This document shows positions 5,861-37,457 of a stretch of 64,000 bases of DNA, piece by piece. This DNA is from Muribaculaceae bacterium (lineage in GTDB: Bacteria > Bacteroidota > Bacteroidia > Bacteroidales > Muribaculaceae). The translations under genes were made by a program, and so were the position numbers. The notes below the pieces were generated by a model that was given only the letters and a program-made list of their open reading frames with translations, did no database searches and was not told where the DNA came from. The stretch's first letter is position 1. Each line of letters opens with the position of its first letter. The DNA is taken from the NCBI GenBank assembly GCA_009775355.1, contig VSPN01000005.1, forward strand, positions 6,563 to 70,562, read 5' to 3'.

Positions 5861-8800
5861 ATGAAAAAATTCAAGGAATATACCGGTCAGCTCAGTCTGT
5901 CGGACATCAACAAGGAGATGCTCGCAGTCTGGGATGAACAGGCTCTTTTCGAACGCTCCATGAAGGAGCGCGAGGGCTGCCCCTCGTTTGTTTTCTATGA
6001 AGGTCCCCCGTCGGCCAACGGAATGCCCGGAATCCATCATGTCATGGCCCGCACGATCAAGGATATCGTGTGCCGTTACAAGACGATGAAGGGTTTTCAC
6101 GTGAAGCGCAAGGCAGGATGGGATACCCACGGCCTTCCCGTCGAACTCGGTGTGGAGAAGACTCTCGGCATCACAAAGGAGGATATCGGTAAGAAGATAT
6201 CTGTCGATGAGTATAACGCCGCATGCCGCCGCGAGGTGATGAAATACACGAAGGAATGGACTGACCTTACTCACCGAATGGGCTATTGGGTCGATCTCGA
6301 GAATCCCTATATCACATACGACCAGCGCTACATGGAGTCTGTGTGGTGGCTTCTCGCCCGGCTTTACAAGAAAGGATACCTGTATAAAGGATATACAATC
6401 CAGCCCTATTCTCCCGCAGCCGGAACCGGCCTAAGCTCTCATGAGCTCAACCAGCCCGGATGCTACCGTGATGTGAAGGATCTTACGGCTACAGTCCTTT
6501 TTGACATCCTTGACCCCAAACCGGAGATGGAGGGCTGGGGACGTCCCTGCTTCATGGCATGGACCACAACCCCCTGGACTCTTCCTTCCAACACGGCACT
6601 CTGTGTAGGCCCGAAGTTCGATTATGTGGCCGTGCGCACGTATAATCCTTACACCGGCGAGAAAATCACGGTTGTTCTCGCAGAGGTGCTCCTGGATTCC
6701 TATTTCAAGAAAGAAGGGCGTAATATTACACTTGAAGATTATAAACCGGGCGACAAGATCGTGCCGTATGAGATCACGGGCCGCTGGAAGGGTTCCGATA
6801 TCGTGGGCATGCGCTACGCGCAGCTCATGCCGTGGGTGCGCCCCACTGAGCGTGTCGACGAGTTCTCTCCGAAATACGTTACGGACTATGCAGCCGCACA
6901 TCCTGAAAAGGTATACTCTGTAGGCGACGACCGTTTTGTCGAGATTGCCGAGTGCGCGTTCCGCGTCATACCGGGCGACTATGTCACTACCGACGACGGT
7001 ACGGGCATCGTCCACATCGCGCCGACTTTCGGTGCCGATGACGCCAAGGTGGCCAAGGCAGCCGACATACCGGCGCTTTTCATGATCAATGCGAAAGGGG
7101 AGACGCGTCCGATGGTCGATCTTTCAGGTAAATTCTATCTTCTGGAAGATCTTGCTCCCGGCTTTGTGGAGGCATGTGTCGACGTAATTCTTTATTCTCG
7201 CCACGAGGGGCAGTATGTGAAAAACGCCTATGATCCGAAGTATACGGTCGACGGCAAGTTTGACGAGAAGCGTGCCGCCGCCGACGAGGATCTCAATGTG
7301 GAACTCTGCATGGAACTTAAGAAGGATGGCCGTGCGTTCCGCACCGAGAAGCATGTGCATAATTATCCTCACTGCTGGCGCACCGACAAGCCGGTGCTCT
7401 ATTATCCGCTCGACAGCTGGTTCATCCGTACGCCTCAGGCACGCGAGCGTCTGATAGAACTCAACGGTTCGATCAAGTGGAAACCGGCATCGACCGGCTC
7501 GGGCCGCTTCGGCAAATGGCTTGAGAATGTGCAGGACTGGAATCTTTCGCGTTCACGCTACTGGGGCACTCCGCTGCCCATCTGGCGCACTGACGATGGC
7601 CGCGAGGAGGTGATAGTCGAAAGCTACGAAGATCTCTTCAATCGGATCGAGGAGTCTGTGGCCAAGGGTGTCATGGCTTCGAATCCACTTAAGGACAAGG
7701 GGTTCGTGCCCGGCGAATATACTGCTGAAAATTACTCGCGCATCGACCTCCACAGGCCGTATGTCGATGAGATCGTGCTTGTGTCGGAATCTGGTCGCCC
7801 CATGCGCCGGGAGACGGATCTGATCGATGTATGGTTTGATTCGGGCGCGATGCCTTACGCGCAGATCCACTATCCTTTCGAGAACAAGGAGCTGCTCGAC
7901 AGCGGAGAGGTCTATCCCGCCGACTTTATCGCCGAGGGTGTGGACCAGACCCGCGGATGGTTCTTCACTCTGCATGCGATTGCGGGCATGGTGTTCGACT
8001 CGGTGGCTTACAAGGCAGTGATCTCAAACGGCCTCGTGCTCGATAAGCATGGGCAGAAGATGTCGAAGCGTCTCGGCAATGCCATTGATCCTTTCGACAA
8101 CATGGAGCGTTTCGGCATAGATCCCGTGCGTTGGTACATGATCTCCAACTCCTCTCCATGGGACAACCTCAAATATGACGAAGAGGGTGTGGCCGAGGTG
8201 GGCCGCAAGCTTTTCTCGACTCTCTACAACACATACAAGTTTCTCGCCCTCTATGCCAATGTCGATGGTTTCACAGGATCTGAACCTGCTGTGCCTGTAG
8301 CAGAGCGCCCCGAGATCGACCGCTGGATTCTCTCGCTGCTCAATTCTCTCGTGCATGAGGTGGAGACTGATCTTGATGATTACGAACCGACCAAAGCCGC
8401 ACGTGCCATAGAGGAGTTTGTCAACGACAACCTTTCAAACTGGTATGTCCGTCTCAACCGTCGCCGTTTCTGGGCCGGAGAGATGGATCAGGACAAGCTG
8501 GCCGCATATCAGACCCTGACTGAGTGTCTCAGGACTGTGGCTCTGCTCATGGCGCCTTTCTCGCCGTTCTATGCCGACCGCCTGTACACCGATCTCGTCG
8601 CGCCTTCGTCGGACGACGGCGAGTATGTTTCGGTGCATCTCGCCGATTTCCCTGTGGCCGACGTTTCTGTCATCGACAAGGATCTTGAGGAGCGCATGAA
8701 CCTCGCCCAGATCATCACTTCCAATGTGCTCGCCCTTCGCCGCAAGGTCAATCTCAAGGTGCGCCAGCCTCTTCAGACGCTGCTTGTGCCAGTCATGGAT

Positions 8801-13558: not shown

Positions 13559-14149
13559 TCAGACAGTCAGGATTATCTCTTTCTCGTTGGCTATGCGGCG
13601 CAGATTGAGAATCGCGTAGCGCATGCGTCCGAGCGCGGTGTTGATGCTCACACCGGTGATCTCGGCGATCTCTTTGAAACTGAGTCCCTGATAGTAGCGC
13701 ATCTTGAGAACCTCGCGCTGGAGCGCTGGCAGTTCGCCGATCAGATACTTCACGTCGGTGCGTATCTGATCCGATATCAGAATGTCTTCTATCGTCTCCT
13801 CGCAAAGCTCCTTGCGGTTGAGTATGTCGACATCTGTCAGATCGGAACTCTGCAGGTTTTCCGACTTCTCCTGACGGTAGTAGTCGATGATCAGATTGTG
13901 GGCGATCCGGGAGATCCATGCCGGAAACTTGCCGTTCTCTGTGTAGCGGCCAAGACGGATGGTCTGTATCGCTTTTACGAATGTCTCCTGAAAGATGTCG
14001 TTGGCTATATCCTCGTTTTTGATTATACGGAGTATATAGTTGAAAATGCGGTCCTGATGACGCTTAAGAAGAGTGTCGAATGCTTCGTTGTTCCCCTCTG
14101 CGTATGCCCTGACAAGCTGCTCGTCTGTCAAGGTTGTGTAATTTGCCAT
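13559..14149 (-). CDS. RNA polymerase sigma-70 family (group 4/ECF-type) sigma factor
   Basis: Region 2 is DIFQETFVKA...FPAWISRIAHNLIIDYYR. Region 4 HTH is LSFKEIAEITGVSINTALGRMRYA. No adjacent anti-sigma ORF is present. Confidence 0.85.
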   Translation of the reverse strand: MANYTTLTDEQLVRAYAEGNNEAFDTLLKRHQDRIFNYILRIIKNEDIANDIFQETFVKAIQTIRLGRYTENGKFPAWISRIAHNLIIDYYRQEKSENLQSSDLTDVDILNRKELCEETIEDILISDQIRTDVKYLIGELPALQREVLKMRYYQGLSFKEIAEITGVSINTALGRMRYAILNLRRIANEKEIILTV

Positions 14150-14446: not shown

Positions 14447-14692
14447 TCATAGCCGTGTGCCGACGGCTGTCAGGATGACTTGCCATAACGTTCTGCCGCC
14501 GGAGTGCGGATAGGGGAGTGTCGTGACGATTGCTGCGGCTGCCGCGAAGATTATGGCTATGGCCGTGGTGCCGTGGCGCAGCAGCGATGAAGGTTCGCGG
14601 TCGATGAATGTGCGGATCTCCCGGCTCTGTTCCTTTTCACGCTTTGTGACGCTGTGCGTATGCGCCGTGTTTTTGTTGTCTTGTTTTGTCAT
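14447..14692 (-). pseudogene. HlyD-family (bacteriocin-exporter adaptor) N-terminal stub
   Basis: 81-aa ORF. IDREPSSLLRHGTTAIAIIFAAAAAIVTTLPYP matches the N-terminal anchor region recalled for Bacteroidetes peptide-export HlyD proteins (...PP.W..R.G......YPD). It starts 6 nt after the ABC remnant, and the normal ~350 further residues are missing. Confidence 0.65.
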
Positions 14693-14698
14693 AAGCTA

Positions 14699-15225
14699 TT
14701 ATGTGCCGAGTTCGAGCTGGTTCTTTACGAGTGAGTAATACAGACCTTTTTTCGATGTCAGTACGGCGTGGTTTCATCCCTTTCTGAAGGCCTTTCGTTT
14801 CTGCTGAGGTGTCGGATGAAAGCCATCGGTTTTCAAATTCCTTACGGCTGTAAGCGATGCGCCCTTTTCAGGGTCTGCGATGTGGAATCTCTTCGATGAA
14901 GCTTTGTAGAGCACCGTGAAGTGGTTTTGCTCCCAGTGCAGCACGCAGGGTAACGGCAGCTGAATGAGTTCGTCGGTTGTGATGTTTCAAATCCCAGAGC
15001 TGCGGCACCGTCTGAAATGCCTTTCAGCGAGACGCCCTCGGCTGTGGGCGTGCAGTATTACTCAAGATGCCCCAGACTGTATCGGCGCCCGTAGTGACGA
15101 CAGATCATGGCGAGACATGCTATGCCGCATTGCATCGCGTCTTTCTGATATAATGACTTTGAATGCCATTCCCTCTTCAACTTGCGGAATTTCCTCGAAA
15201 AAACGCACCGTCCCTGCATTAACAT
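14699..15225 (-). pseudogene. C39-peptidase-domain ABC transporter (bacteriocin exporter), badly degraded
   Basis: My translation gives ...YQKDAMQCGIACLAMICRHYGRRYSLGHLE*YCTPTAEGVSLKGISDGAAALGFET, then a frameshift, then DELIQLPLPCVLHWEQNHFTVLYKASSKRFHIADPEKG...RKG*NHAVLTSKKGLYYSLVKNQLELGT*. The C39 Cys and His boxes and the last ~23 aa of the ABC domain are present. TAA lies at 15058-15060, the frameshift at ~14971-14985 and TGA at 14774-14776. The TMD and most of the NBD (~550 codons) are absent. Confidence 0.8.
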
Positions 15226-15278
15226 TTTTGTGGGATGGGGGCTAATAGGAGATCTGGCACTGATTGTGCGGGATCCGG

Positions 15279-17393
15279 TTATTTGAGTATCGCCGACTCA
15301 GCCTTTTCTGTCGCTCCGATCTCGTTGCCTCTCCTGATCTGTTTTCCGTAGCCGAATGTATAGCCCACGTAAAACGCTATTGCGGCATGGCCTGCCTGGC
15401 CGAAGCTCGTGGTTTTGCTGAAGTATTCCGGAACGTTGATCTCCGAAATCGAATATATCCAGTCGGTCTTGAGGAAGCGCGAGGCTGTGAGACGCAGATT
15501 CCATTTGCCGTTTCCCCAGCCGGCCTGAAGATAGTAATGACTATTACGCGTGTCGGTCGAATTGGTTATTTTGTTTAGCTCGCGGCTTCTCAGTGAATAG
15601 AACGCCGAGAAGTAGAAGTTTTTTATGTAGTATGTCGCGGATGCTGACAGTTGGAAGTGCTGGAGTTTTTTTGAATACGTGCCGGTCATGTCGTAGAAAT
15701 CCATGCGTGGCGACGCCGATAGTCTCAGCGATCGGTTGAGCAGAGACCAGTTGAACGATACTCCAACGTTTGCATATGTGAAGTCTCCGTTGTTAACGTA
15801 GTTGCGGAGCAGCGCGTCATATCCTGGATAGGCCGAATATAATGTGGTCAGTTTGTTGTTGTAGCGATCCATCATTCCGTAGGCGAAGAGGCTGAAGTTG
15901 TCGGTCGGCATGAAGGAATATCCGAGATTCGCGGTGATTTCATCATAGCTGTCGAGCGTAGGGTTTCCTCTGTAGTACAGAAGCTCGTTTTCCTGAAGTG
16001 TGTCGGGAGATTTGGAGGTGGCTCCTGTCGGAATCCTGCTGTATTTGCCGAAGAATTGAACTGAGTTTTTGTTGTTGGGTTCGTAGGTGAAGTATAGCTG
16101 GGCTCTCGGGGTCAGCGATACATTGGTCTTGCCATTCATTGTGGTGTGTTCCCAGTCGATTCCGAGACGAGGGGAGATTTGGATCTTGTCTGTCGTGAAT
16201 GAATAGAAGAGATCTCCATATATATTGTTCCATGTGAAAATGTCGCGATAGTCAGTGTTGCCTGTGTAATCGATCTTGTTGCGCTGCGAATAGGCGTGTA
16301 TCTGAGCTCCGAGATAATGGTTGGCGGCCTGTTTGCTTATATATACGGTTCCGCCGCCAAAGAGAGTGTTTTCTTTGGCTAGCCTTGTGATCGAGAACGG
16401 CATGTCGGTTGTGTACAGATAGTCGCTGTGCGAACGTGTGTGGCTGATGCGCGGCATCATTCCGATTGTAAATTGTCCGGGAAGATAGACCGTGTAATTG
16501 CCGAAATAGTTTATGGAATTATCTCTTGACGGAGAGTCGGACTCATAAAGATAGTCGCGGCTGTTGTCAGGTTCCCATTCGAGCGTTCCCGTCATGCGGT
16601 TGCGCTTCATGTCGTAATGGGTATAGCCGAGCCGGTTCTCTATCGTGACATTTCTCGAATTGTAGATTGCACGGAATGTAACCGGATAATTGCCCTGTGT
16701 CATTCCTGAGCTTCCGACAGTGGTCTTTCTTTCGGGGGCTGAGGCCGGATCGCCCACGGCGGCGAGACCTCTGAAAACGGACTTTGATTCGGAGCCTGAG
16801 TGTTTTGAATCCCAGTTCATAGCTCCGACATAAAGGTCGTAGGTCATCGACTTATAAGCGAATTTGGAGAATACGCTCGCGTTGCTTGACAGTCCGATAA
16901 GTGCATGCTCAGTGACGTTGAGTTTTGTATATCCGCCGAATTCGTAGACTTTCATTATGATGTTCACAACCTTAAACGCACCTTTGAAGCGGGGATCCTG
17001 AGGTGACTCAAGATACATCACTTTCACCACGTCAGAGGTTTTAAGACCTTGCAGTTCCTCTTCTGTTGCCGGCATATAATTTATGTAAATATCGATATTG
17101 TTGCCGAATCTGTCGGTGATCGAATTGCTTCCGCTTACTGCATCGATCTGTGGTATTTGCATGCGCGCGATAAGATCCACGGCGTTGGTCGCGGAGTTTT
17201 TTTCTGCGGTTGTCGGAGTGTATATCGCACCGTTTTTTACCAGCATGCGGGTATTGCTTTCAATCACAATTTCCTGCAGTTCCCGGGACTGTGTGGAATC
17301 GTTCTGTTCCGTGTTGTCGGAAATGGAAGTGGACTGTGCTGCCGCGCATGCCGAAAATAACGCTAAATTGATAAATAACAGTCTGGATCTCAT
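15279..17393 (-). CDS. outer-membrane beta-barrel protein (plug-like N-domain, OMP_b-brl_3/TonB-receptor-like)
   Basis: Intact 704-aa ORF with signal peptide MRSRLLFINLALFSACAAAQS. It has a plug-like segment NAVDLIARMQIPQIDAVSG...IDIYINYMP...VVKVMYLESP and an alternating aromatic/Gly-rich barrel to the C-terminus. Confidence 0.75.
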   Translation of the reverse strand: MRSRLLFINLALFSACAAAQSTSISDNTEQNDSTQSRELQEIVIESNTRMLVKNGAIYTPTTAEKNSATNAVDLIARMQIPQIDAVSGSNSITDRFGNNIDIYINYMPATEEELQGLKTSDVVKVMYLESPQDPRFKGAFKVVNIIMKVYEFGGYTKLNVTEHALIGLSSNASVFSKFAYKSMTYDLYVGAMNWDSKHSGSESKSVFRGLAAVGDPASAPERKTTVGSSGMTQGNYPVTFRAIYNSRNVTIENRLGYTHYDMKRNRMTGTLEWEPDNSRDYLYESDSPSRDNSINYFGNYTVYLPGQFTIGMMPRISHTRSHSDYLYTTDMPFSITRLAKENTLFGGGTVYISKQAANHYLGAQIHAYSQRNKIDYTGNTDYRDIFTWNNIYGDLFYSFTTDKIQISPRLGIDWEHTTMNGKTNVSLTPRAQLYFTYEPNNKNSVQFFGKYSRIPTGATSKSPDTLQENELLYYRGNPTLDSYDEITANLGYSFMPTDNFSLFAYGMMDRYNNKLTTLYSAYPGYDALLRNYVNNGDFTYANVGVSFNWSLLNRSLRLSASPRMDFYDMTGTYSKKLQHFQLSASATYYIKNFYFSAFYSLRSRELNKITNSTDTRNSHYYLQAGWGNGKWNLRLTASRFLKTDWIYSISEINVPEYFSKTTSFGQAGHAAIAFYVGYTFGYGKQIRRGNEIGATEKAESAILK

Positions 17394-17541
17394 AAGATTG
17401 TTGTTAGAACCGATAAAACGGCTTGATTAGATGTGAGATTTGTTTGTTTTTTCTCGGAAATTTCGGAAACCCGATCCCGCCGATTGATGGATGATCCGGA
17501 TTCTCTCTTTCTTCGGAAAGAAACCGGATTATCTGTCAGTG

Positions 17542-17745
17542 TCAGTTTGAATGCGAGAAGCAGCCGTAGTCGTAGCTTTCAGTGTCGTTGCAGTTACAGG
17601 TGTTTTCCGATGTCTGCGAGTTGCAGTCGCATGAGAATGACGCACCTCCGTTGCATACGCACGATGATGCCATGCCTCCTCTTACAGAATTGCTTTCCGA
17701 CGGGGTGAGCCTCGGTCTGAAGTTTTTAATTATCATTTCTTTCAT
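17542..17745 (-). CDS. candidate RiPP precursor: double-glycine leader plus Cys-rich core
   Basis: ATG at 17745 gives MKEMIIKNFRPRLTPSESNSVRGG / MASSCVCNGGASFSCDCNSQTSENTCNCNDTESYDYGCFSHSN. The leader fits L(-12) T(-11) E(-8) V(-4) G G. The gene lies between the rSAM/SPASM gene and the OM barrel. Confidence 0.6.
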   Translation of the reverse strand: MKEMIIKNFRPRLTPSESNSVRGGMASSCVCNGGASFSCDCNSQTSENTCNCNDTESYDYGCFSHSN

Positions 17746-17866
17746 ATCAGAGAGGTATTGTGGAAGTTGACTGGCCAACTTCAAGGTTAATGATGCGTGA
17801 ATTTAATAAAAAATATTGCTTTTTTGCAAATTTTAAAGAAATAATCTCTGCAAAAAGTGCTTGTTT

Positions 17867-19077
17867 TTATAATCTGAGTTGCTTTTTCTCCTTGTTGGGA
17901 TTCTCTTCGGTTGAAGAAAGCAACGCGCGCTTAAGATTCTCTTTGTCGCGGAATGCCGAACAATAGAAGAAGTCAGATCCTTCGAATCTGTTGCGATAGC
18001 GCAGCATTCCGCAACCCCCGTCGCATATCGGAAATACGAAGCATTGCTTGCATTCTTCGTCAAACGGACTGCATTCGTGCATGTATCTCATCAGTCGTGG
18101 ATAGTTATGGCGTCTGTTGTCAGCGATGCTTCCGATCACCTTGTCGTGACTGCTGACGTCGTTCCAGCATTTGTAGAGTTCTTGTAGAGGCCTGTCAGTT
18201 CCGAGGGATTTATCGACGAATAGCACAGTTTGTTTCCTCCCGTCGCATCTTCTCTGATCAGGCCGGGGTAGGGGTATATCTTTCTGTGACGCTCCTCATT
18301 ACGGAACATGTCGTAGATTTTTACGAAATCATCGCGGTTGTTGCGATTTATGTTGACCCGCAACGATATGTCGAGTTCCGGCATCGATTCAGCCAGCTTC
18401 TCGATGTTGGCCATGATTCTGTCGAATGTCGGAGTTCCGATTCCTTTGAGGAATCTGGTTTTGTCGTGATTCTCTTTTATTCCGTCTATCGAGATCTGGA
18501 TTCTGTCAAGTCCGATCTCCTTGAATATGGCTATCACATGATCGTCGATGAGATAGGCGTTGGAGATCAGTTCCTGATACTGGATCTTTTTTTCGGTTTC
18601 CGATTTGAGCCTTTTGTGAATTGTTTCGATTTCTGCCGCCATCAGCAGAGGTTCTCCGCCATACCATGTCAGCGACACAGTCTCGATCTCTTTCTGGTTG
18701 TTGACGTAATCGATTATTTTGTCGATTGTCTCTTTTGTGACAGACCGTGGATTTTTCTTTGGCTCGAAACAGTAGGGACACTCGAAGTTGCATCCGGTTG
18801 TAGGTGCGATGATCAGCGACATGTGTTTGGAGCCGTATGCATCCGTCAGAAATCGTGTCAGTGAGTCATAATAGAATGTGTATTTCTCTTCTCAATTGAC
18901 TATTATCCCTTTCTCCTTGAGTTCAGAGAATAGTTCTTCGGGCAGCTCATCCCAGCTGTGGTTATATAGAATTTCGTATAGATCTTCAGAGATCTCGGAG
19001 AAGTAAAGGCTCTCCGAATTGAAAAGATAGTATTTGCCGTTTTCAGTAAATAGGAACGTGTATATCGAGAGTATCAT
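17867..19077 (-). pseudogene. radical SAM/SPASM peptide maturase, interrupted (one in-frame TGA and one frameshift)
   Basis: Three track ORFs form one protein. The N-terminal peptide-binding-like domain (19077-18895) is followed by TGA at 18894-18892, in frame with the rSAM core (APTTGCNFECPYC, WYGGEPLL; to ~18250). A 1-nt frame change near the C4 runs (18245-18275) leads into the SPASM domain (CDGRKQTVLFVDKS...LYKCWNDV...CKQCFVFPICDGGC; to 17867). Confidence 0.8.
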
Positions 19078-19094
19078 GACGGTAGCATTATTGG

Positions 19095-19235
19095 TCAGTA
19101 TATGGTTGATCCTTGTTCTTTGATGGGATAGGAATAATTATGATTGTCTGGGCATTTACACAAATGGTGTACACAATTGTCAATGGTGCACGCGATTGTC
19201 AATAGTGCCGAACAGATAAGAGATTTACCTTTCAT
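19095..19235 (-). CDS. hypothetical 46-aa Cys-containing peptide or lipoprotein-like ORF upstream of the maturase
   Basis: MKGKSLICSALLTIACTIDNCVHHLCKCPDNHNYSYPIKEQGSTIY sits ~35 nt downstream of a TATCTTTG box and ends 17 nt before the rSAM ATG. Coding status is doubtful because a 2x19-bp DNA repeat inside it is out of frame with itself. Confidence 0.3.
   Translation of the reverse strand: MKGKSLICSALLTIACTIDNCVHHLCKCPDNHNYSYPIKEQGSTIY
19166..19203. repeat. tandem 19-bp direct repeat (2 copies, 16/19 identical)
   Basis: Plus strand: ggtgtacacaattgtcaat / ggtgcacgcgattgtcaat. Each unit carries two mini-palindromes (GTGTACAC or GTGCAC, and ATTGNCAAT). Confidence 0.8.
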
Positions 19236-19269
19236 TTTTATCTTTAGATGTAGACGCATGCTTGTCAGA

Positions 19270-19659
19270 TCAAAGATAACAAACCATTGCGTTTGCATAG
19301 TGTCCGTTTGTATAATCGCATATTCCTGCGAGGTAATGGGCTTTGGCCGCGTTACGTGAGTCTTTCTTGCGTTCGTAATAGTCTGCCGCTACCCGAGCGA
19401 TCGAGTCATCGAGCGGAAGAGAGTCTGCCTTATGGCGGGCCTTGGTCAGAAGCTTGTTGTATCGTGCTTCGACTGATTCATGTTTTCTTCGCGGAAGCTC
19501 GATCTTGCGGAGAATCCGGAGAGCCGAGTCCGGATCCGAATCAACAAGTGATTCGGCAGTATCCAGTTGAATCCGGGTGTGTGAATCCGAACATGAGAAC
19601 AGGCATGTCATAATGCCCATGATGCCAAGCAGGAGAACTGTCAGAGTAAGACTTCGCAT
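19270..19659 (-). pseudogene. N-terminal fragment of a TPR lipoprotein/regulator family protein
   Basis: Lipobox LFSCSDS is followed by DTAESLVDSDPDSALRILRKIE...YNKLLTKARHKA...DDSIARVAADYYERKKD...AKAHYLAGICDYTNGHYANAM. This resembles the first ~130 aa of ~500-aa Bacteroidales TPR(+LuxR) proteins (from memory). The ORF stops abruptly in the promoter box. Confidence 0.45.
19271..19278 (-). promoter_or_regulatory. -7 promoter box (TATCTTTG on minus strand) for the rSAM operon
   Basis: Exact TAnnTTTG match. It overlaps the stop codon of the truncated TPR ORF. Confidence 0.45.
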
Positions 19660-19730
19660 GATACTGCAGTTTTGACCGCAAATACAATGCAAATATTCTT
19701 AATCGCAATACTTATGAAAACATATTTCGT

Positions 19731-19769
19731 AAAAAAGAGCCTCCGCGAGAGGCTGTCTTGCGGAGGCTG
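19731..19769 (-). terminator. Rho-independent terminator of prmA
   Basis: Minus-strand RNA forms an agccuccgc/gcggaggcu stem followed by CUUUUUU. Confidence 0.7.
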
Positions 19770-19801
19770 TCTTTACTGATGAGTGGTGTCTGACTCTGAG
19801 T

Positions 19802-20647
19802 TTACCGTTTTACGAGACGGAGTGCTGTCCAGCGGTTGCTGATCAGGCGCGACTCCAGTTCGAGGCCGTGGCGCGACGCCGCTTCGGCTATCATGGGCGT
19901 GTCTTCTTCATAGAAGCCGCTGAGCAGCATTGTGCCGCCTGATTTGAGGTGTGCGGCGTAGCGGTCGATGTCGCCCAGAATGATGTTGCGGTTGATGTTG
20001 GCGAAGAGAAAGTCTGCCGGTCCGAGTCCGGCAAGCGAGGAGGCATCACCATGTATAAGGTTCATCCGGACTCCGTTGAGTGCTACGTTCTCAATGGCGT
20101 TCTCATAGGCCGGACGGTCTATCTCGATGCCTGTTACGCCGGAGGCTCCCCGCATGGCGGCCAGTATGCCGAGAATCCCGGTGCCGGTCCCCATGTCGAT
20201 CACGCTGCGACCTTCGAGGTCGGAGGCAAGAATGTGTCTTACCATCTGCGATGTTGTGTCGTGATGGCCTGTGCCGAATGCCATTTTTGGGTCTATCACG
20301 ATATCGTATTCCGCCGCAGGTATGTCGGTGTGGAATGATGAATGGATAACGCACCGCCCGTCTATCAGGATCGGTTTGAAGTAATGCTTCTCCCACTCTT
20401 CGTTCCAGTCCTGACCCTTGACAAGCTGCTGCGAGATTTCGAGACGCGTCTCCATCGGAAAATCCGAAAGAGCCTCGCGGGCGGCAAGCGCACCGTCGCC
20501 GGACGCGGCACCTATATATGCCGTCAGACCGTTTGCATCCGGTTCGAAAGATTCAAATCCTGCATCGGCGAGAAATGCCGCCATCAGGTCTGTGATATCA
20601 GCCGTGCATGGCCTGGCATCTATTCTTACACTGTAATAATCGTTCAT
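19802..20647 (-). CDS. prmA: ribosomal protein L11 methyltransferase
   Basis: 281 aa. It has the SAM-binding motif VIDMGTGTGILGILAAMRGA and the N-terminal PrmA-type domain MNDYYSVRI...FLADAGFESFE. Confidence 0.85.
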   Translation of the reverse strand: MNDYYSVRIDARPCTADITDLMAAFLADAGFESFEPDANGLTAYIGAASGDGALAAREALSDFPMETRLEISQQLVKGQDWNEEWEKHYFKPILIDGRCVIHSSFHTDIPAAEYDIVIDPKMAFGTGHHDTTSQMVRHILASDLEGRSVIDMGTGTGILGILAAMRGASGVTGIEIDRPAYENAIENVALNGVRMNLIHGDASSLAGLGPADFLFANINRNIILGDIDRYAAHLKSGGTMLLSGFYEEDTPMIAEAASRHGLELESRLISNRWTALRLVKR

Positions 20648-20700
20648 GAAAATAAACAGTCCACCCTGATGAGGCGGACTTTATAAAATGGTTGATAATA

Positions 20701-21030
20701 TTAATTTTTACCTCTTATGAGACGAATGCCTTTCTTGGCTGTGCCGAAGAGCGATATGCCCATAAGTATGTAGTCGAGTGTGTTCATATGAGAGAAGACG
20801 GTAGACGCTATCTTGCCTGCCAGAGCAAGTTTAGATCCGCCTCCTGACTTTCCTTTCCCTTTAGAGCCAGGCCGAAGCGTCTCGACAGACTGCATGACTT
20901 TGGTCTTGCAGAATTCTTTTCGCAAAGCCATCATGGCGCGCTGGTAACGGAGTTCCTCCATTGTGTATCCTTTGAACGGAGCTTCCGTATCTCCGGATTC
21001 AGCGAGAAGATTCTTTTTATTATCTTTCAT
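20701..21030 (-). CDS. hypothetical small protein (C-terminal hydrophobic segment)
   Basis: 109-aa ORF, last gene of the YtxH/holin-like cluster. It has a Gly/Lys-rich linker KGKGKSGGGSK. Confidence 0.5.
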   Translation of the reverse strand: MKDNKKNLLAESGDTEAPFKGYTMEELRYQRAMMALRKEFCKTKVMQSVETLRPGSKGKGKSGGGSKLALAGKIASTVFSHMNTLDYILMGISLFGTAKKGIRLIRGKN

Positions 21031-21050
21031 AGTTATTAACGTCTGGAGGG

Positions 21051-21407
21051 TTAATGTTTCCTGTCAAAAAACACGCGGGTGATTAGTCTGGCTATAGGGT
21101 TAAGCAGCAGGGGTTTACGCAACAGATATAAAAGTGCGAGCAGAACGCATATGGCTCCGGCTGTCGAAAGGTAGGCGAGTGCCGGGTTCATAATCAGTCT
21201 GAAAGCCTCGGCAAGCGAGAATGCAAGCATGATGAGAACCACGACTCCAAGCAGAAGACATACGAAACCGAGAATCAGGGTCGACATAAGAAGCGTCAGC
21301 TTTTCGGCGATTGTCAGTTTTGCGTATTCAAGTTCGAGTCGTAGCCATGTCTTTGACTGATCGATTATGCTGCGTATCTCTTCGATGAGATTGACTTTCA
21401 TAGGCAA
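21051..21407 (-). CDS. phage-holin-family-like (Holin-X/DUF1469-type) membrane protein
   Basis: 118 aa with an amphipathic N-terminus (SKTWLRLELEYAKL) followed by two long TM helices. Confidence 0.55.
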   Translation of the reverse strand: MPMKVNLIEEIRSIIDQSKTWLRLELEYAKLTIAEKLTLLMSTLILGFVCLLLGVVVLIMLAFSLAEAFRLIMNPALAYLSTAGAICVLLALLYLLRKPLLLNPIARLITRVFFDRKH

Positions 21408-30659: not shown

Positions 30660-30733
30660 GGGGCATTAGCTCATCTGGCTAGAGCGTTTGACTGGCAGTC
30701 AAGAGGTGACGAGTTCGAGTCTCGTATGCTCCA
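30660..30733 (+). tRNA. tRNA-Ala (anticodon GGC)
   Basis: Hand-folded 74-nt cloverleaf. Acceptor stem is GGGGCAT/ATGCTCC with G3:U70, D stem GCTC/GAGC and anticodon loop CTGGCAG. T arm is ACGAG-TTCGAGT-CTCGT, the discriminator is A, and no CCA is encoded. Confidence 0.9.
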
Positions 30734-31089: not shown

Positions 31090-32595
31090 TTACTTTACTG
31101 TCGTGCGCTTGTCCCAGACGGGATGTGCCGGATCTTCGGCTACAAGAGCCTCTTCAAGATCTATGCCCAGTGCGGCGGCGAGCATTGCGCCGTATTCTTT
31201 ATCGGCGTTGTGACATGCCCGGACATGTCGCTGTCTGATGAAAAGAGGAACATCCTTCATCTGTGCCGCAGTGTTGTCGCATGTGGCTTTCTTGTCGGCA
31301 TCTGTCATCAGACGCCACAGTTTGCCGGGCTGTGTGTAGTAGTCATCGTCAAGCTCTCGCTCATCGTATGTATAAGCCGCGCCATGAAGTTCAAGCGGTG
31401 GTTCCCGGAGTGCTGGATTGTCCTGCCATTCCCCATAGCTGTTAGGCTCGTAGGCTATAGTTGAGCCGTAGTTGCCGTCTGTGCGCATCTGTCCGTCGCG
31501 GTGGTATGCGTGGAACGGACACCGTGGACGGTTGACGGGGATGAGATTGTTGTTCACCCCAAGACGATATCGCTGGGCGTCGCCATAGGAGAACAGCCTT
31601 CCCTGAAGCATTTTGTCGGGCGAGAATCCTATGCCGTCGACAATGTTGGCCGGATTGAACGCCGCCTGTTCGATTTCGGCAAAGAAATTCTCCGGATTGC
31701 GGTTCAATTCAAGAATTCCGACATCGCGCAGCGGAAAGTCTTTGTGATACCATACTTTTGTAAGATCAAAAGGATTGATGCCATATTCCTTGGCTTCATC
31801 CTCGCTCATTAGTTGGATCTGTAGTTTCCACCGGGGAAAGTCTCCGCGTTCGATGGCATCGAAAAGATCGCGTTGATGAGATTCGCGGTCTTTCGCTATA
31901 ATGGCTTCCGCTTCCTGATCTGTCAGATTTTTTATGCCCTGGAGTGTGCGGAAATGGAATTTTACCCATGTCCGCCTGTTGTTCCGGTCAATGAAGCTGT
32001 AGGTGTGGCTGCCGAATCCGTGCATGTGGCGGAATGAGGCCGGTATGCCGCGTGGCGACATGGTGATCGTTATCTGGTGAAGTGCTTCTGGAAGAAGAGT
32101 CCAGAAGTCCCAGTTTGCGGTCGGATTACGCATGCCGGTGCGCGGATCGCGCTTGATGGCGTGGTTGAGATCAGGAAATTTCAGCGGATCGCGAAGAAAA
32201 AACACAGGGGTGTTATTGCCTACCAGATCCCAGTTCCCTTCGTCTGTATAGAATTTCATGGCGAAGCCGCGTATGTCGCGTTCCGCATCGGCGGCTCCCC
32301 GTTCGCCGGCAACTGTGGAGAATCTGACAAGACACGGTGTCTGTTTCCCGACTTTAGAGAATATCGAAGCCCGGGTGAACTCGCTTATGTCATTGGTGAC
32401 AGTGAATGTTCCGAATGCCCCCGAACCCTTGGCGTGCATCCGTCGTTCGGGAATCACCTCTCGGTCGAAATGGGCGATTTTCTCAAGATACCACGGGTTC
32501 TGAGCGGTGACGGGTCCTCTGGGTCCTGCTGTCTGTACATTCTGGTTGTCGGCTACAGCTCGTCCGTTTTCTGCGGTAAGTCTTTTCTTATCCAT
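31090..32595 (-). CDS. katA: monofunctional heme catalase (small-subunit type)
   Basis: [42 protein letters not shown] and proximal-Tyr region [14 protein letters not shown]; 501 aa. Confidence 0.95.
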
Positions 32596-32626: not shown

Positions 32627-33454
32627 TTATTTAGGTGTGTTTACAAGTTCATGCCAGTAGGCCCGGCGCAAAGGCACCACAGAATCGTTGTGCTCGATCA
32701 GGACGGGCGATCCCGTTTCGGGAGACTCGGGCTCAAGAAGCAATTCCTCGCCTGGACGGACCACAAAGCGGTATATGACAGTGTTTGCCGATCCTCCGTT
32801 CTCAAGTACGCCTTCGAGAAGCTGAGCCGGAAGGCCTCTGAGATCATTCGCTGGCCCGTAAACGGCCATGCGGTAGTGTTTCCCCTCTTTGTGATGATTG
32901 TGTCCTCTGAAGTTCGAATCCACGCGATATATGTTGCCGTTTCCGTCATTGCGCAGACATAGCACCGGAAACCAGCCTTCTCGTATGCTCGGTTCTATGC
33001 TTCTGATTTCTTCGTCAGTAAGACTGTCAAGCTTTTTTATTTCTTTCTGTGAAATATAATGCACATCATAGATGCCTTCATCTATCCAGATATACTGTCC
33101 GTCATCAAGACTCCATCCGCGCCATCCATATTCTTTCCAGCGCCGGGGAGCTGCTTTGACAATGATGTCGCGCAGAGAATCATCAACCATTTCTTTGTAA
33201 TATGATTTCATCTGGCCGGCACTGTCTATGTCGTGAAGCGGATATGGACGTTGTATCGGGTATGTCACAAGTCTGGCGAATCCGATGCTGTCGTTGTCTG
33301 CCACTGCGCGGACAAGCAGTTTTATAGTTGTCGGGAGAGAGTCGCAGTTTTCAACTTCCTCTACATTTGATTCCGATGACGATCTGTTTCCGCATCCGGT
33401 CAGGAGTGCGCCGGTGATCATGGCCATCAATATTGCTGATACTTTTGTAAACAT
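32627..33454 (-). CDS. hypothetical lipoprotein
   Basis: Lipobox GALLTGCGN; 275 aa with no recognised domain. It overlaps the upstream gene by 28 nt. Confidence 0.6.
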
Positions 33455-34149
33455 GCCATCATTTTGTTTGTAGTGAAAAAATATCTGTTGCGGTTCTCGT
33501 TATGTGAGTATGACTTGCTGTATCCTTGCGTCAGTAATGAAGCGTTTCCCTGAGGAGAGGAAAAGGCGTGTGCCCGGCTCTGAGGCTGCATGGCGGTGGT
33601 TTCGGGATCTTTGACAAACAAGGTCTTGAACTCTTCGATCCTGCGTCTTTGTATCTGTGAATGAGGCTTGCCTCTGAAGCGGCAATGTGCAATATAATTC
33701 TCATATATATCGCGATTTCCCGCCTTAAGTTTGCTTACGACCGATGACCGGGACGTGGCTCCGCTGCCGATGTTGTATGCGAGTACGCCGAGAAGCAGTG
33801 AATCCGCTCCGAACTGGCGGAATGCCGCGCAATTCTTCAGAAGATCTTTTCTTAACAATGCTTCGGCTTCAGCCTCGGTCATTGTCTTTGTTCGGCTGAA
33901 TGTCTCTCCTCTAAGCACCTTGTGACCATATCCTACAAACGGCCAGTGTCTTGGCTGGTGCATCCCTTCATATTTCTTTATGATCTGGATGGCCTTTTCA
34001 AAGTCAGATATTGATTCGCTTTCGGTTGCCGCAGAGTCATTGGTGGCGCTCAGGCGACCATAAAGGCCCTTCATGCCGAAGAGGCTACTGACTGCCATCA
34101 AGGCAATTGAGATAGCTGAGATAAGTTTCATTTGCAAGTCATTTTTCAC
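33427..34149 (-). CDS. secreted lysozyme-like (phage-lysozyme/GH24-type fold) protein
   Basis: A signal peptide is followed by FEKAIQIIKKYEGMH...FVGYGH, resembling the i..EG...tiGyGH catalytic region. The second acidic residue is not obvious. Confidence 0.5.
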   Translation of the reverse strand: MKNDLQMKLISAISIALMAVSSLFGMKGLYGRLSATNDSAATESESISDFEKAIQIIKKYEGMHQPRHWPFVGYGHKVLRGETFSRTKTMTEAEAEALLRKDLLKNCAAFRQFGADSLLLGVLAYNIGSGATSRSSVVSKLKAGNRDIYENYIAHCRFRGKPHSQIQRRRIEEFKTLFVKDPETTAMQPQSRAHAFSSPQGNASLLTQGYSKSYSHNENRNRYFFTTNKMMACLQKYQQY

Positions 34150-35782: not shown

Positions 35783-35814
35783 GAAGCGGAACTGATATTG
35801 CTGCATGTTGTATG

Positions 35815-35844
35815 GCTTCGGAGATTTCTCCGAAGCTTTTTTTT
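35815..35844 (+). terminator. Rho-independent terminator after the GNAT gene
   Basis: gcttcggag/ctccgaagc stem followed by T8. Confidence 0.8.
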
Positions 35845-36747
35845 ATTGCGAGTTTTTCAGTTTTATTACTTGTTGTAGGCATTAAGGTGTATGCAGTAAT
35901 TGTCTGCGGATTATTCATTTTTAGGATCGGCTTTTCCGGTGCCGGGCAGGCAAAGAATTGACTTCTTGCCAAACACAGTTGTGCGAACGTTATTCTGTAT
36001 TATTAATGTCAGATAATACTGCTTTTTGTCTAAAATTAGCTATTTTTGAAGAAAATCTACTGATTGTTTCAAATTAATAAGGGGTTGGAATAAGCGGATT
36101 TATCATTGTTTGAGTTTGCTTTAAAGGCTCTGAGAATCGCTTGAAATTCTTGATTCCGGCAATTCCTCGAGATTTTCAAATTCTCGTTGAATCTGGTTCT
36201 GGAAAAATCAGATTCTTGAAAATCATTTTGAAAGGTGGGGGAGTGGCGTTTCTTAATGGCTTTGTTGAATTGGTCAAATTGGGATATTCATAGTGGGTGA
36301 AATCTAACATAGATTTTGATTTTACAAATATGAAGTTTCAAATGCAACCTCAATGTTTTAAATTGATATGTTTGCGATTGTAATGGGTGCTGACTTGATC
36401 ACAAACGGGAATAATTTGTGTTTGGTAATCGTGATTTACATAATTGAAATTTACATTTGAAATTATCTTTGAATTGCAAATTTTATGATTTAACATTCTG
36501 TAACATTGATTATATATTGCTTAAAATCAATGTAATAGTGCGATATTTAAAAGTTATTGGAAATAAATCGATGGTAAAATTGGGCTGTTTGGTAATTGTT
36601 GTTGGAATGGCAAGGTATTATCCTGAAACATGTATTTGTAGGACTCATTGCTAAAGCATATTTTAGCTTAGTTTTGGTCGTTTAGGTGTGGTTTTAAGGA
36701 CTGAAAAGCATGGTGTTTGCAAAATACAATGCGTGTGAATTTGTGAA

Positions 36748-36775
36748 GATAATTTTGCAAATTTGCAAAATTATC
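36748..36775. promoter_or_regulatory. 28-bp perfect palindrome (candidate operator) over the -33 region of the HTH gene promoter
   Basis: GATAATTTTGCAAATTTGCAAAATTATC is its own reverse complement. It ends 2 nt before the TACATTTG box. Confidence 0.55.
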
Positions 36776-36777
36776 AT

Positions 36778-36785
36778 TACATTTG
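36778..36785 (+). promoter_or_regulatory. -7 promoter box (TACATTTG) for the HTH gene
   Basis: TAnnTTTG match 31 nt upstream of the ATG at 36816. Confidence 0.45.
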
Positions 36786-36815
36786 CATTCTGATTACAAA
36801 TTTGAAATTTGAGAT

Positions 36816-37457
36816 ATGGATAACGACAATGTTGCGATTCGTCTAAAAGGGTTCATCGACTCTGAGGGTTTGTCGCACTCTCAGTTTGCCGACAAGTGTG
36901 GAATTCCCAAACCGAGCCTGTCGCAGTTGCTTAGCGGAAGAAACAAGAAAGTCAGTGATGTGATCATCGGTCAGATTCATCGTGCTTTCCCAGATTTGTC
37001 GGTTCTTTGGCTTTTGTTTGGTGAGGGTGGTATGCGGACTGTTGCATCACGATTGTCCGAGACTGATTCTGTCAGCGAATCTGAAGATCCCGCTTGTTCC
37101 GCTCGATTTCGGTCTGACCCGCACGGAGATCCAGGAGTAGATGGCTCTCTTTCGGATGCAGATATTGCAGATTGTGGCGGATTTTTAAAAAATGATGTTG
37201 AGAATGGTTTTTCTGGCTTTAAGGATTCGGGAATTGCGGGGGATTGCCAGGATGTTCGGAATTATTCAAACGTCAGAGCCTTAAATCCCCCCTCTAAGGC
37301 ATTGCAAATTGCAGAAAAACAATTGCTTGATGCAGAAAATAAAATCGCCGAATTGCAAATGCAAATAGATAGAATGAGGCAAAATCCGCGGAAAGTAACA
37401 CATATAACCGTGTATTACGACGATTCTACTTTTGAGACGTTCTGTTCGAACTCTTGA
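36816..37457 (+). CDS. XRE-type helix-turn-helix protein with a C-terminal coiled-coil
   Basis: N-terminus is LKGFIDSEGLSHSQFADKCGIPKPSLSQLLSGRNKKVSDVIIGQIHRAFPDLSVLWLLFGEG. A disordered acidic middle is followed by LLDAENKIAELQMQIDRMRQ. Confidence 0.75.
   Translation: MDNDNVAIRLKGFIDSEGLSHSQFADKCGIPKPSLSQLLSGRNKKVSDVIIGQIHRAFPDLSVLWLLFGEGGMRTVASRLSETDSVSESEDPACSARFRSDPHGDPGVDGSLSDADIADCGGFLKNDVENGFSGFKDSGIAGDCQDVRNYSNVRALNPPSKALQIAEKQLLDAENKIAELQMQIDRMRQNPRKVTHITVYYDDSTFETFCSNS

Follow-up and report, generated by a model that had tools for sequence, protein, structure and literature searches.

Clusters for peptides that are made on ribosomes and modified after translation (RiPPs) are numerous in gut Bacteroidales and chemically almost unexplored. 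An in-silico survey of RiPP clusters of this order presents the clusters BGC1 and BGC2 with radical S-adenosylmethionine (rSAM) enzymes only, and describes BGC2 with genes for a peptidase-containing ATP-binding cassette (ABC) transporter (PCAT), for a membrane-fusion protein (MFP), for an outer-membrane protein (OMP), and for tetratricopeptide repeat (TPR) proteins (Fernandez-Cantos et al. 2023, PMC10352776). Here, we analyzed a stretch of 64,000 nucleotides (the window) from a Muribaculaceae bacterium (GenBank assembly GCA_009775355.1, contig VSPN01000005.1, positions 6,563 to 70,562), in which the minus-strand locus at 19692-14447 is, very probably, a decayed peptide cassette with a double-glycine (GG) leader precursor, an rSAM maturase, and a PCAT. 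This upholds the core of a first-pass annotation made from the sequence itself, which had proposed a decayed locus for a GG-leader peptide modified by an rSAM/SPASM enzyme and served by a C39-peptidase exporter. The eight open reading frames (ORFs) and motifs listed there are all present, on the strand and at the positions given, and the flanking genes are confirmed, Pfam recognizing prmA on one side and an extracytoplasmic function (ECF)-type sigma-70 factor on the other.

This reading is supported by an intact counterpart, whose existence in related bacteria the first-pass annotation had predicted. A homolog search with the repaired maturase returned more than 1,200 proteins, typically of 430-445 aa, and a scan of species-representative genomes found, in an uncultured Muribaculaceae metagenome-assembled genome (MAG; L007/L088, hereafter L007), a syntenic locus lying between the same prmA and sigma factor genes, with 94-96.5% nucleotide identity to the window, in which each gene is a full-length ORF. 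The order in L007 is a TPR protein (606 aa), a DUF3244 lipoprotein (142 aa), a first precursor (pre1, 73 aa, at 7688-7909), the rSAM/SPASM maturase (437 aa), a second precursor (pre2, 67 aa), the OMP (704 aa), the PCAT (737 aa), and a protein of 81 aa. Measured against it, the window has suffered four deletions, of ~1.6 kb, ~0.6 kb, 103 bp, and 1.7 kb. The TPR gene carries a frameshift followed by the ~1.6-kb deletion, and the ~0.6-kb deletion removed most of the DUF3244 gene together with pre1 and the hairpin behind it. The reading frame of the maturase gene is interrupted by a TGA at 18894-18892, where strain L005 has CGA. The gene has also lost 103 bp at 18183/18182, which shifts the frame; gone with them are residues ~299-333, among them the GPEGE motif and Cys319, an invariant cysteine of the auxiliary cluster. 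Indels of +1, -13, and -1 and a stop codon in frame break the C39 domain of the PCAT, and a 1,734-bp internal deletion at about 14776/14771 (the coordinates of the large deletion in the ABC region being those of blastn and tblastn) removed residues ~137-713 and spared the last 24 codons. The pre2 allele of the window differs from that of L007 by a Cys-to-Tyr change. Since these deletions are common to the independent assemblies L005, L086, and L087, which come from different projects and are 99.3-99.95% identical, and since the decayed form is found on 23 of the 24 longest contigs encoding an identical sigma factor, the lesions are not assembly errors. The decay was stepwise, as L005 lacks two of the window's point changes, still having CGA in the maturase gene and Cys in the precursor. 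With maturase and PCAT dead, one precursor gene gone, and a conserved cysteine missing from the other, this genome cannot make a product.

Table 1. Features of the decayed peptide locus and of its borders (window coordinates)
Feature	Positions	Strand	Basis or remark
prmA	19802..20647	-	Left border of the locus; PF06325 PrmA on identical context
TPR lipoprotein remnant, BT3442 type (~151/606 codons)	19240..19692	-	tblastn to L007
DUF3244 lipoprotein remnant, frameshifted N-terminus of 142 aa	19097..19238	-	blastn/tblastn to L007
rSAM/SPASM peptide-maturase pseudogene	17867..19077	-	Pfam, NCBIfam, intact ortholog
Precursor peptide gene pre2	17542..17745	-	Near-identical gene in L007 9435-9638
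OMP, 704 aa, intact	15279..17393	-	AlphaFold2 (AF2) model, Foldseek, homologs
C39-peptidase ABC exporter (PCAT) remnant, of 737 aa	14702..15172	-	Pfam, tblastn to L007
Mini membrane protein, 81 aa	14447..14692	-	Full length in L007 too
ECF-type sigma-70 factor gene	13559..14149	-	Right border; Sigma70_r2 / r4_2 Pfam matches

The interrupted maturase ORF matched the Pfam domain Radical_SAM (PF04055, E = 7.5e-25) and its SPASM tail, now in a different frame, scored 37.3 bits on TIGR04085 (cutoff 27), so that the enzyme class recognized in the first reading is confirmed. The CX3CX2C cluster motif is present in the window ORF as CNFECPYC and is invariant in 29 homologs; the seven SPASM cysteines (C319, C338, C377, C380, C386, C390, and C407) are invariant in the homologs too, and it is the region of C319 that the window has lost. 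Among the NCBIfam models, the best scoring were TIGR04334 (Clo7bot), TIGR04463, and NF038107 (CefB, Cys-every-fifth), on which the intact homologs obtained about 187-230 bits over nearly their full length, the cutoffs being 525-600. With scores of only a third of the curated cutoffs, the maturases form a separate clade that has no model of its own. The intact ortholog, a 437-aa protein encoded at L007 8001-9314, also stayed below the cutoffs of PapB (NF047865, 114 bits, cutoff 340) and SCIFF (TIGR03974, 80 bits, cutoff 425). For a homolog with 59% identity, the AF2 model (pLDDT 93) has the thioether synthase CteB as its closest structure (E = 2e-18, TM 0.63-0.65 over the full length), and the match spans the N-terminal domain as well, whereas that of the anaerobic sulfatase maturase anSME covers the core only. 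From this likeness and the Cys-rich substrates, the chances that the maturase forms thioethers seem to us evenly balanced.

The 67-aa precursor described in the first-pass annotation was also confirmed as a GG-leader, Cys-rich peptide, in which the leader MKEMIIKNFRPRLTPSESNSVRGG precedes a core with CxC motifs. The core is not the threefold [S/T]CxCN repeat that had been read there: the family has four CxC motifs, one cysteine of which was lost in the window, where the most conserved element of the precursors, YDCGC[FY]S, is the one mutated. In nearly all homolog loci of Bacteroidales, small GG-leader ORFs containing cysteine are found around the maturase gene, at up to 1.2 kb on its upstream side or 0.9 kb on its downstream side, and at nearly each of these loci one to three of them lie just upstream of the maturase gene. 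CxC precursors of the window type occur in L001, L007, and L008, and other subfamilies present CTCDC...SNxN or three DCTCGSANSN repeats, or a core with a single cysteine. Across the wider clade, the content per precursor ranges from 1 to more than 10 cysteines. The single-Cys GG-leader precursors (core KKKLQIKAKIEICYVEVSDSTSTKSKN) were seen at L019 2315-2473, L097 2073-2228, and L098 1010-1168, and would be a minimal substrate for resolving the crosslink chemistry. On the GG-Bacteroidales leader model TIGR04149, the window precursor gave no match at E <= 10, and the precursor of its closest relative, L001, scored 23.4 bits (E = 4e-5), just below the cutoff of 25; by this score the leader is related to the GG-Bacteroidales leaders while falling short of membership.

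The exporter assignment held as well, two fragments of the window matching Peptidase_C39 (E = 9e-8 and 2e-5); these fragments and the last 24 codons are what remains of a PCAT that in L007 (11957-14170) has the complete set of PF03412 (E = 2e-34), PF00664 (ABC_membrane, E = 6e-30), and PF00005 (ABC_tran, E = 1e-30). The ORF behind it had been taken for an 81-aa stub of HlyD, an identity that we rejected, given that its homologs are all short and that neither Pfam nor NCBIfam returned a HlyD match. When 1.84 billion representatives were searched exhaustively with HMMER, 11 homologs came up, all of 64-97 aa, and the protein is 81 aa long in L007 as well, i.e., it is a full-length mini membrane protein with a single pass, an LPYPHSxG motif, and the consensus ELRSEKVR...LLRWGT...LPYPHSxGE. 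Equivalents of 69 and 161 aa come after the PCAT in distant loci, and, judging from its sequence and position, this is a native small partner gene of the PCAT. In a census of 43 related loci, many of which end at contig ends, 26 have an OMP-type gene directly behind the maturase, which makes the OMP a part of the cassette; a PCAT was found in 25, and in 15 it is followed by the mini protein. No MFP was found in the intact L007 cassette or in any inspected locus, and neither the window OMP, the precursor, nor the 81-aa protein matched any Pfam or NCBIfam model.

The OMP is the only large gene of the window locus that is intact, and the 704-aa outer-membrane β-barrel of the first reading stands. 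Its AF2 model is a plugged barrel (pLDDT 86.4, pTM 0.81), and its best 50 Foldseek matches in the PDB are all TonB-dependent transporters (TBDTs), such as PfeA, Cir, OprC, and FepA (E about 1e-17, TM about 0.56). The predicted fold is thus that of a TBDT, with plug and barrel, and not that of TolC; together with the lack of an MFP in the intact cassette, it speaks against a TolC-style route for the export that had been envisaged across both membranes. It was the comparison of folds alone that was informative, as a sequence-profile search of the OMP family against the PDB gave nothing meaningful, and the window OMP had no Pfam match at E <= 0.1, remaining under the thresholds of PF14905 and PF00593. 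PF14905 (OMP_b-brl_3) is matched by 3/32 family members, and strongly by the positional equivalents in L018 and L016; relatives carry OMP_b-brl_3 and CarboxypepD_reg domains, and the window protein is a divergent relative of the OMP_b-brl_3 proteins. In an N-terminal segment modelled with low confidence, the plug is preceded by ELQEIVIES (family consensus ELxEVVVEA), a candidate TonB box by sequence resemblance. Elsewhere, OMP homologs are found with ECF sigma and FecR genes, or with PCAT and TPR genes. At L091 5865-9544, for instance, genes for an ECF sigma factor and a FecR-type anti-sigma factor come immediately before that of an 847-aa homolog with a CarboxypepD_reg N-terminus, which is the arrangement of TonB-dependent signalling transducers; the window locus likewise ends at an ECF-type sigma gene.

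The OMP and its neighbors were also compared by their substitutions. Comparison with L007 gave the OMP a dN/dS of 0.125; the maturase pieces are still as low as 0.04-0.13, so the death of the maturase is recent. Among members of the decayed lineage, no lesion is seen in the 2,115 bp of the OMP, and its changes, 8 synonymous against 4 nonsynonymous, depart from neutrality (binomial p = 0.0012); those of the pseudogene pieces, 7 synonymous against 15 nonsynonymous, are compatible with it. That the OMP was kept under purifying selection while the production genes died suggests a role of the barrel that is independent of local peptide production.

Taken as a whole, the explanation that we favor, and to which we give a high probability, is that of a pseudogenized Bacteroidales RiPP cassette with the gene order of L007, in which the OMP was retained. 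In the intact form, a leader of ~24 residues ending in ...NSVRGG would dock on the N-terminal domain of the maturase, and the rSAM/SPASM enzyme would crosslink the cysteines in the four CxC motifs, with thioethers as the likeliest linkage if the Cys-rich substrates and the CteB-like structure are a guide. From what is known of its family, the PCAT would then cut after the GG and pump the core across the inner membrane. With no MFP at hand, the outer-membrane step would fall to the TBDT-like OMP, either as peptide exit, as with Oar, a TBDT acting in the secretion of PopC in Myxococcus xanthus (PMC6434023), or as re-uptake or sensing. The OMP is unlikely to be a TolC-style duct, and could export, import, or sense.

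Several points weigh against this reading. The maturase reaches no curated equivalog cutoff, and the models of cyclophane- and ether-forming maturases (DynA, 109 bits) score about the same as PapB, for which reason thioether formation is a preference and not a result. The direct contrast between OMP and pseudogenes is no more than suggestive, as it relies on few substitutions (Fisher p = 0.075). The mini protein has frameshift variants of 83, 84, and 91 aa with altered C-termini in L005 and L086, and may, unlike the OMP, be starting to decay. Moreover, the roles that can be given to the TPR and DUF3244 genes are guesses, and that of the OMP may be export, import, or immunity.

Among the competing explanations, two concern the nature of the locus itself. 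It could be argued that the rSAM protein is a non-peptide enzyme of the anaerobic sulfatase maturase type, an alternative raised in the first-pass annotation, and that the small Cys-rich ORF is there by chance, considering that JGI labels some homologs 'possible arylsulfatase regulator' and that anSME is the best PDB match by sequence. Nevertheless, the intact ortholog scored 102 bits on TIGR03942 (cutoff 349) against ~190-200 bits on peptide-maturase models, and CteB is the best structural match, including an N-terminal peptide-binding domain that anSME does not have; the co-occurrence of GG-leader ORFs and PCAT with the gene across Bacteroidales already refutes this explanation, and we regard its probability as negligible. 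It is also extremely improbable that the frameshifts, stop, and deletions are sequencing or assembly artefacts in a functional locus. MAG-type assemblies can hold indel errors in general, with nothing specific pointing to them here, but the same 103-bp and kilobase deletions recur in the three other assemblies and in the great majority of contigs, and L005 differs by point changes alone.

The remaining alternatives concern the OMP. It is possible, as a tentative proposal, that it is purely the outer-membrane exit of a two-step, MFP-less route, from the PCAT to a TBDT-like channel, and that it remains intact because the cassette died recently. The location of its gene, which in 26 of the 43 loci stands between those of maturase and PCAT in what looks like a single operon, the lack of MFP genes at the inspected loci, and the Oar/PopC precedent (PMC6434023) would all agree with such a function, and the low dN/dS of the maturase pseudogene with a short time since its death. 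On the other hand, the neighboring remnants have ~seven small lesions in ~1.7 kb and the 2.1-kb OMP none, the OMP substitutions within the lineage depart from neutrality, and the decayed form is fixed across many samples. Doubtful, in our view, is the proposal that the OMP is a receptor or importer of the mature peptide, as a signal or a metal-binding public good, kept by non-producers, or, alternatively, that OMP and mini protein constitute an orphan immunity system. A receptor would explain the plugged TBDT fold and the TonB-box-like consensus, the homologs behind ECF sigma and FecR anti-sigma genes (L091), and the retention under selection after biosynthesis was lost, and a producer lineage whose DNA is 92-96% identical does exist (L007); in addition, CxC-rich cores resemble metal-binding motifs. 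Yet the selection statistics are based on small numbers, and precursors with 1 to more than 10 cysteines fit one conserved metal site poorly. The candidate sensor, the TPR protein, is truncated in this genome, and any sensing circuit through it is therefore broken. A bolder and improbable combination would be that an MFP-less module of PCAT, TBDT-like barrel, and ~80-aa protein moves rSAM-crosslinked CxC peptides, that the barrel also or instead re-imports them as a signal or metal carrier, and that the lineage of the window consists of receptor-only non-producers, i.e., cheaters or eavesdroppers. If true, this would amount to a type of Gram-negative public-good or signalling system, based on a peptide, that has so far gone undescribed.

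At the upstream end of the locus, the truncated TPR lipoprotein was recognized correctly in the first reading. The ORF 19692-19270 corresponds to residues 1-151 of the 606-aa ortholog (tblastn, 84% identity) and stops past a frameshift; the remnant matches the NCBIfam model BT3442_fam weakly (E = 1e-6), and the TPR matches in Pfam are those of the full-length ortholog. Two other elements proposed for this region have to be abandoned. The 46-aa Cys-containing ORF (19235-19095), considered as a second precursor, was rejected because it matches the signal-peptide region of the DUF3244 lipoprotein, of which it is the frameshifted N-terminus: it has 65% nucleotide identity to L007 7239-7361, aligns by tblastn with residues 15-55 of the L007 protein in two frames, and the intact protein matches PF11589. 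The supposed promoter box TATCTTTG (19271-19278) lies inside former TPR coding DNA, where L007 reads GCTTCTTTAAAG, and the TAnnTTTG motif occurs 42 times within the window, so it should be read as mutated coding DNA and not as a conserved promoter. In L007, a near-perfect inverted repeat (gacgcaattgtccgg...ccggacaattgcgtc) is located at 7906-7965, after precursor 1 and before the maturase gene, and belongs to what the window has lost; by its sequence, it would be typical of a stem-loop that sets the ratio of precursor to enzyme transcripts. The combination of a TPR protein of ~600 aa followed by a DUF3244-type lipoprotein of ~140 aa was observed at L007 5175-7625, at L018 5031-7416, and in L092/L093, and recurs upstream of varied secreted-product loci, both RiPP cassettes and peptidase C10/PCAT loci. 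The pair resembles BT_3442/BT_3441, which sit upstream of a MACPF toxin locus (PMC2954219), and its recurrence suggests a regulatory module shared within Bacteroidales.

Regarding base composition, the locus had been described as an AT-rich accessory island. It is AT-rich: its GC content of 47.3% (52.1% over the window) falls at the 10th percentile of stretches of its length, and that of the part with maturase and precursor, 43.5%, at the 3.5th percentile; the difference is nonetheless modest, and the most AT-rich part of the window lies at 35-38 kb. Its accessory character was not borne out, considering that the locus occupies the same site in the lineages of both the window and L007, and that no empty prmA-sigma site was present among the 24 contigs read. 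Among the PLSDB plasmids, the island had no megablast match. Divergence from L007 is uneven: the prmA/TPR flank (19307-21405) has 83.6% nucleotide identity and a prmA dS of 0.44, the island (14776-19106) 94-96.5% and a dS of 0.11-0.15, and the right flank 93-95%. This jump at the start of the maturase gene suggests a recombination boundary between the two sequences. In the remainder of the window, GC is lowest (37-39%) in ~1 kb free of ORFs (35790-36815), where TAnnTTTG motifs, about a dozen in number, are clustered at 36041-36785. Downstream of this region follows a gene for 213 aa (36816-37457) that matches HTH_3 below threshold (19.6 bits, cutoff 23). Rfam identified one tRNA and nothing else over the window; its gene lies at 30660-30733. 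Next come a catalase gene (31090-32595) and one with a phage-lysozyme domain (33427-34149), both on the minus strand.

The comparison of loci delimits a conserved five-gene core, made up of a GG-leader precursor, rSAM/SPASM maturase, TBDT-like OMP, PCAT, and mini membrane protein, which ranges from Muribaculaceae to Prevotellaceae, Porphyromonas, and Parabacteroides. It also reveals a maturase clade without a curated model, for which L007 supplies an intact template, and no experimental work on this clade or its peptides was found in the literature. Cultured carriers include Hoylesella marshii DSM 16973, Hallella multisaccharivorax DSM 17128, Porphyromonas levii DSM 23370, and Barnesiella sp. 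WM24; OMP and PCAT were both detected in H. marshii and Barnesiella sp. WM24, and the OMP in H. multisaccharivorax. These loci raise the question of what a TBDT-type barrel does in a peptide export operon without an MFP, for which the decayed copy, with its production genes dead and its barrel kept, represents a natural experiment.

Importers of the TBDT type are encoded in other peptide clusters, such as MbnT in methanobactin operons. With MbnT and with Oar/PopC, the locus shares a TBDT-type barrel genetically tied to a secreted peptide or protein, a likeness of type with no sequence relationship established. As for the maturase, it is like CteB and PapB, from ranthipeptide/SCIFF systems, in having an N-terminal peptide-binding domain, an rSAM barrel, a seven-Cys SPASM domain, and Cys-rich substrates, and unlike them in its identity of 18-20%, leader type, core motif, and Gram-negative export context. 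The uncharacterized families TIGR04334, TIGR04463, and NF038107 also pair rSAM/SPASM enzymes with short Cys-rich peptides, whereas here the precursor has CxC repeats behind a GG leader, in a context of OMP, PCAT, and mini protein. The Mitchell-lab rSAM compendium (PMC10288494) leaves Bacteroidetes unmentioned. The GG-Bacteroidales system of TIGRFAMs (TIGR04148/TIGR04149/TIGR04150), to which the first-pass annotation had pointed, is similar in its Bacteroidales host, GG leader, and rSAM/SPASM maturase beside the precursor; the link stands for the leader, by the resemblance described above, and fails for the maturase, which is not a TIGR04148 member. The window fragment scored 56.3 bits on that model (cutoff 300), the model is absent from the 25 best (all with at least 58 bits) for the intact ortholog, and the gene list of the intact L007 locus has no pseudo-rSAM partner (TIGR04150).

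The clusters surveyed by Fernandez-Cantos et al. (2023, PMC10352776) have the same gene categories in the same bacterial order, and PCAT and OMP clusters lacking an MFP were noted there too. The likeness is one of gene category: the survey gives no chemistry, does not identify the OMP fold or describe the small membrane protein, and, in its accessible part, shows no mention of a CxC precursor family. Since the survey already reported clusters with rSAM, PCAT, OMP, and TPR genes, the window locus is a dead member of a known general kind, and the clade to which it belongs is a distinct, unmodelled variant of that kind, distinguished by its cores of CxC type, its TBDT-like barrel, and the mini protein that stands where an MFP would be.

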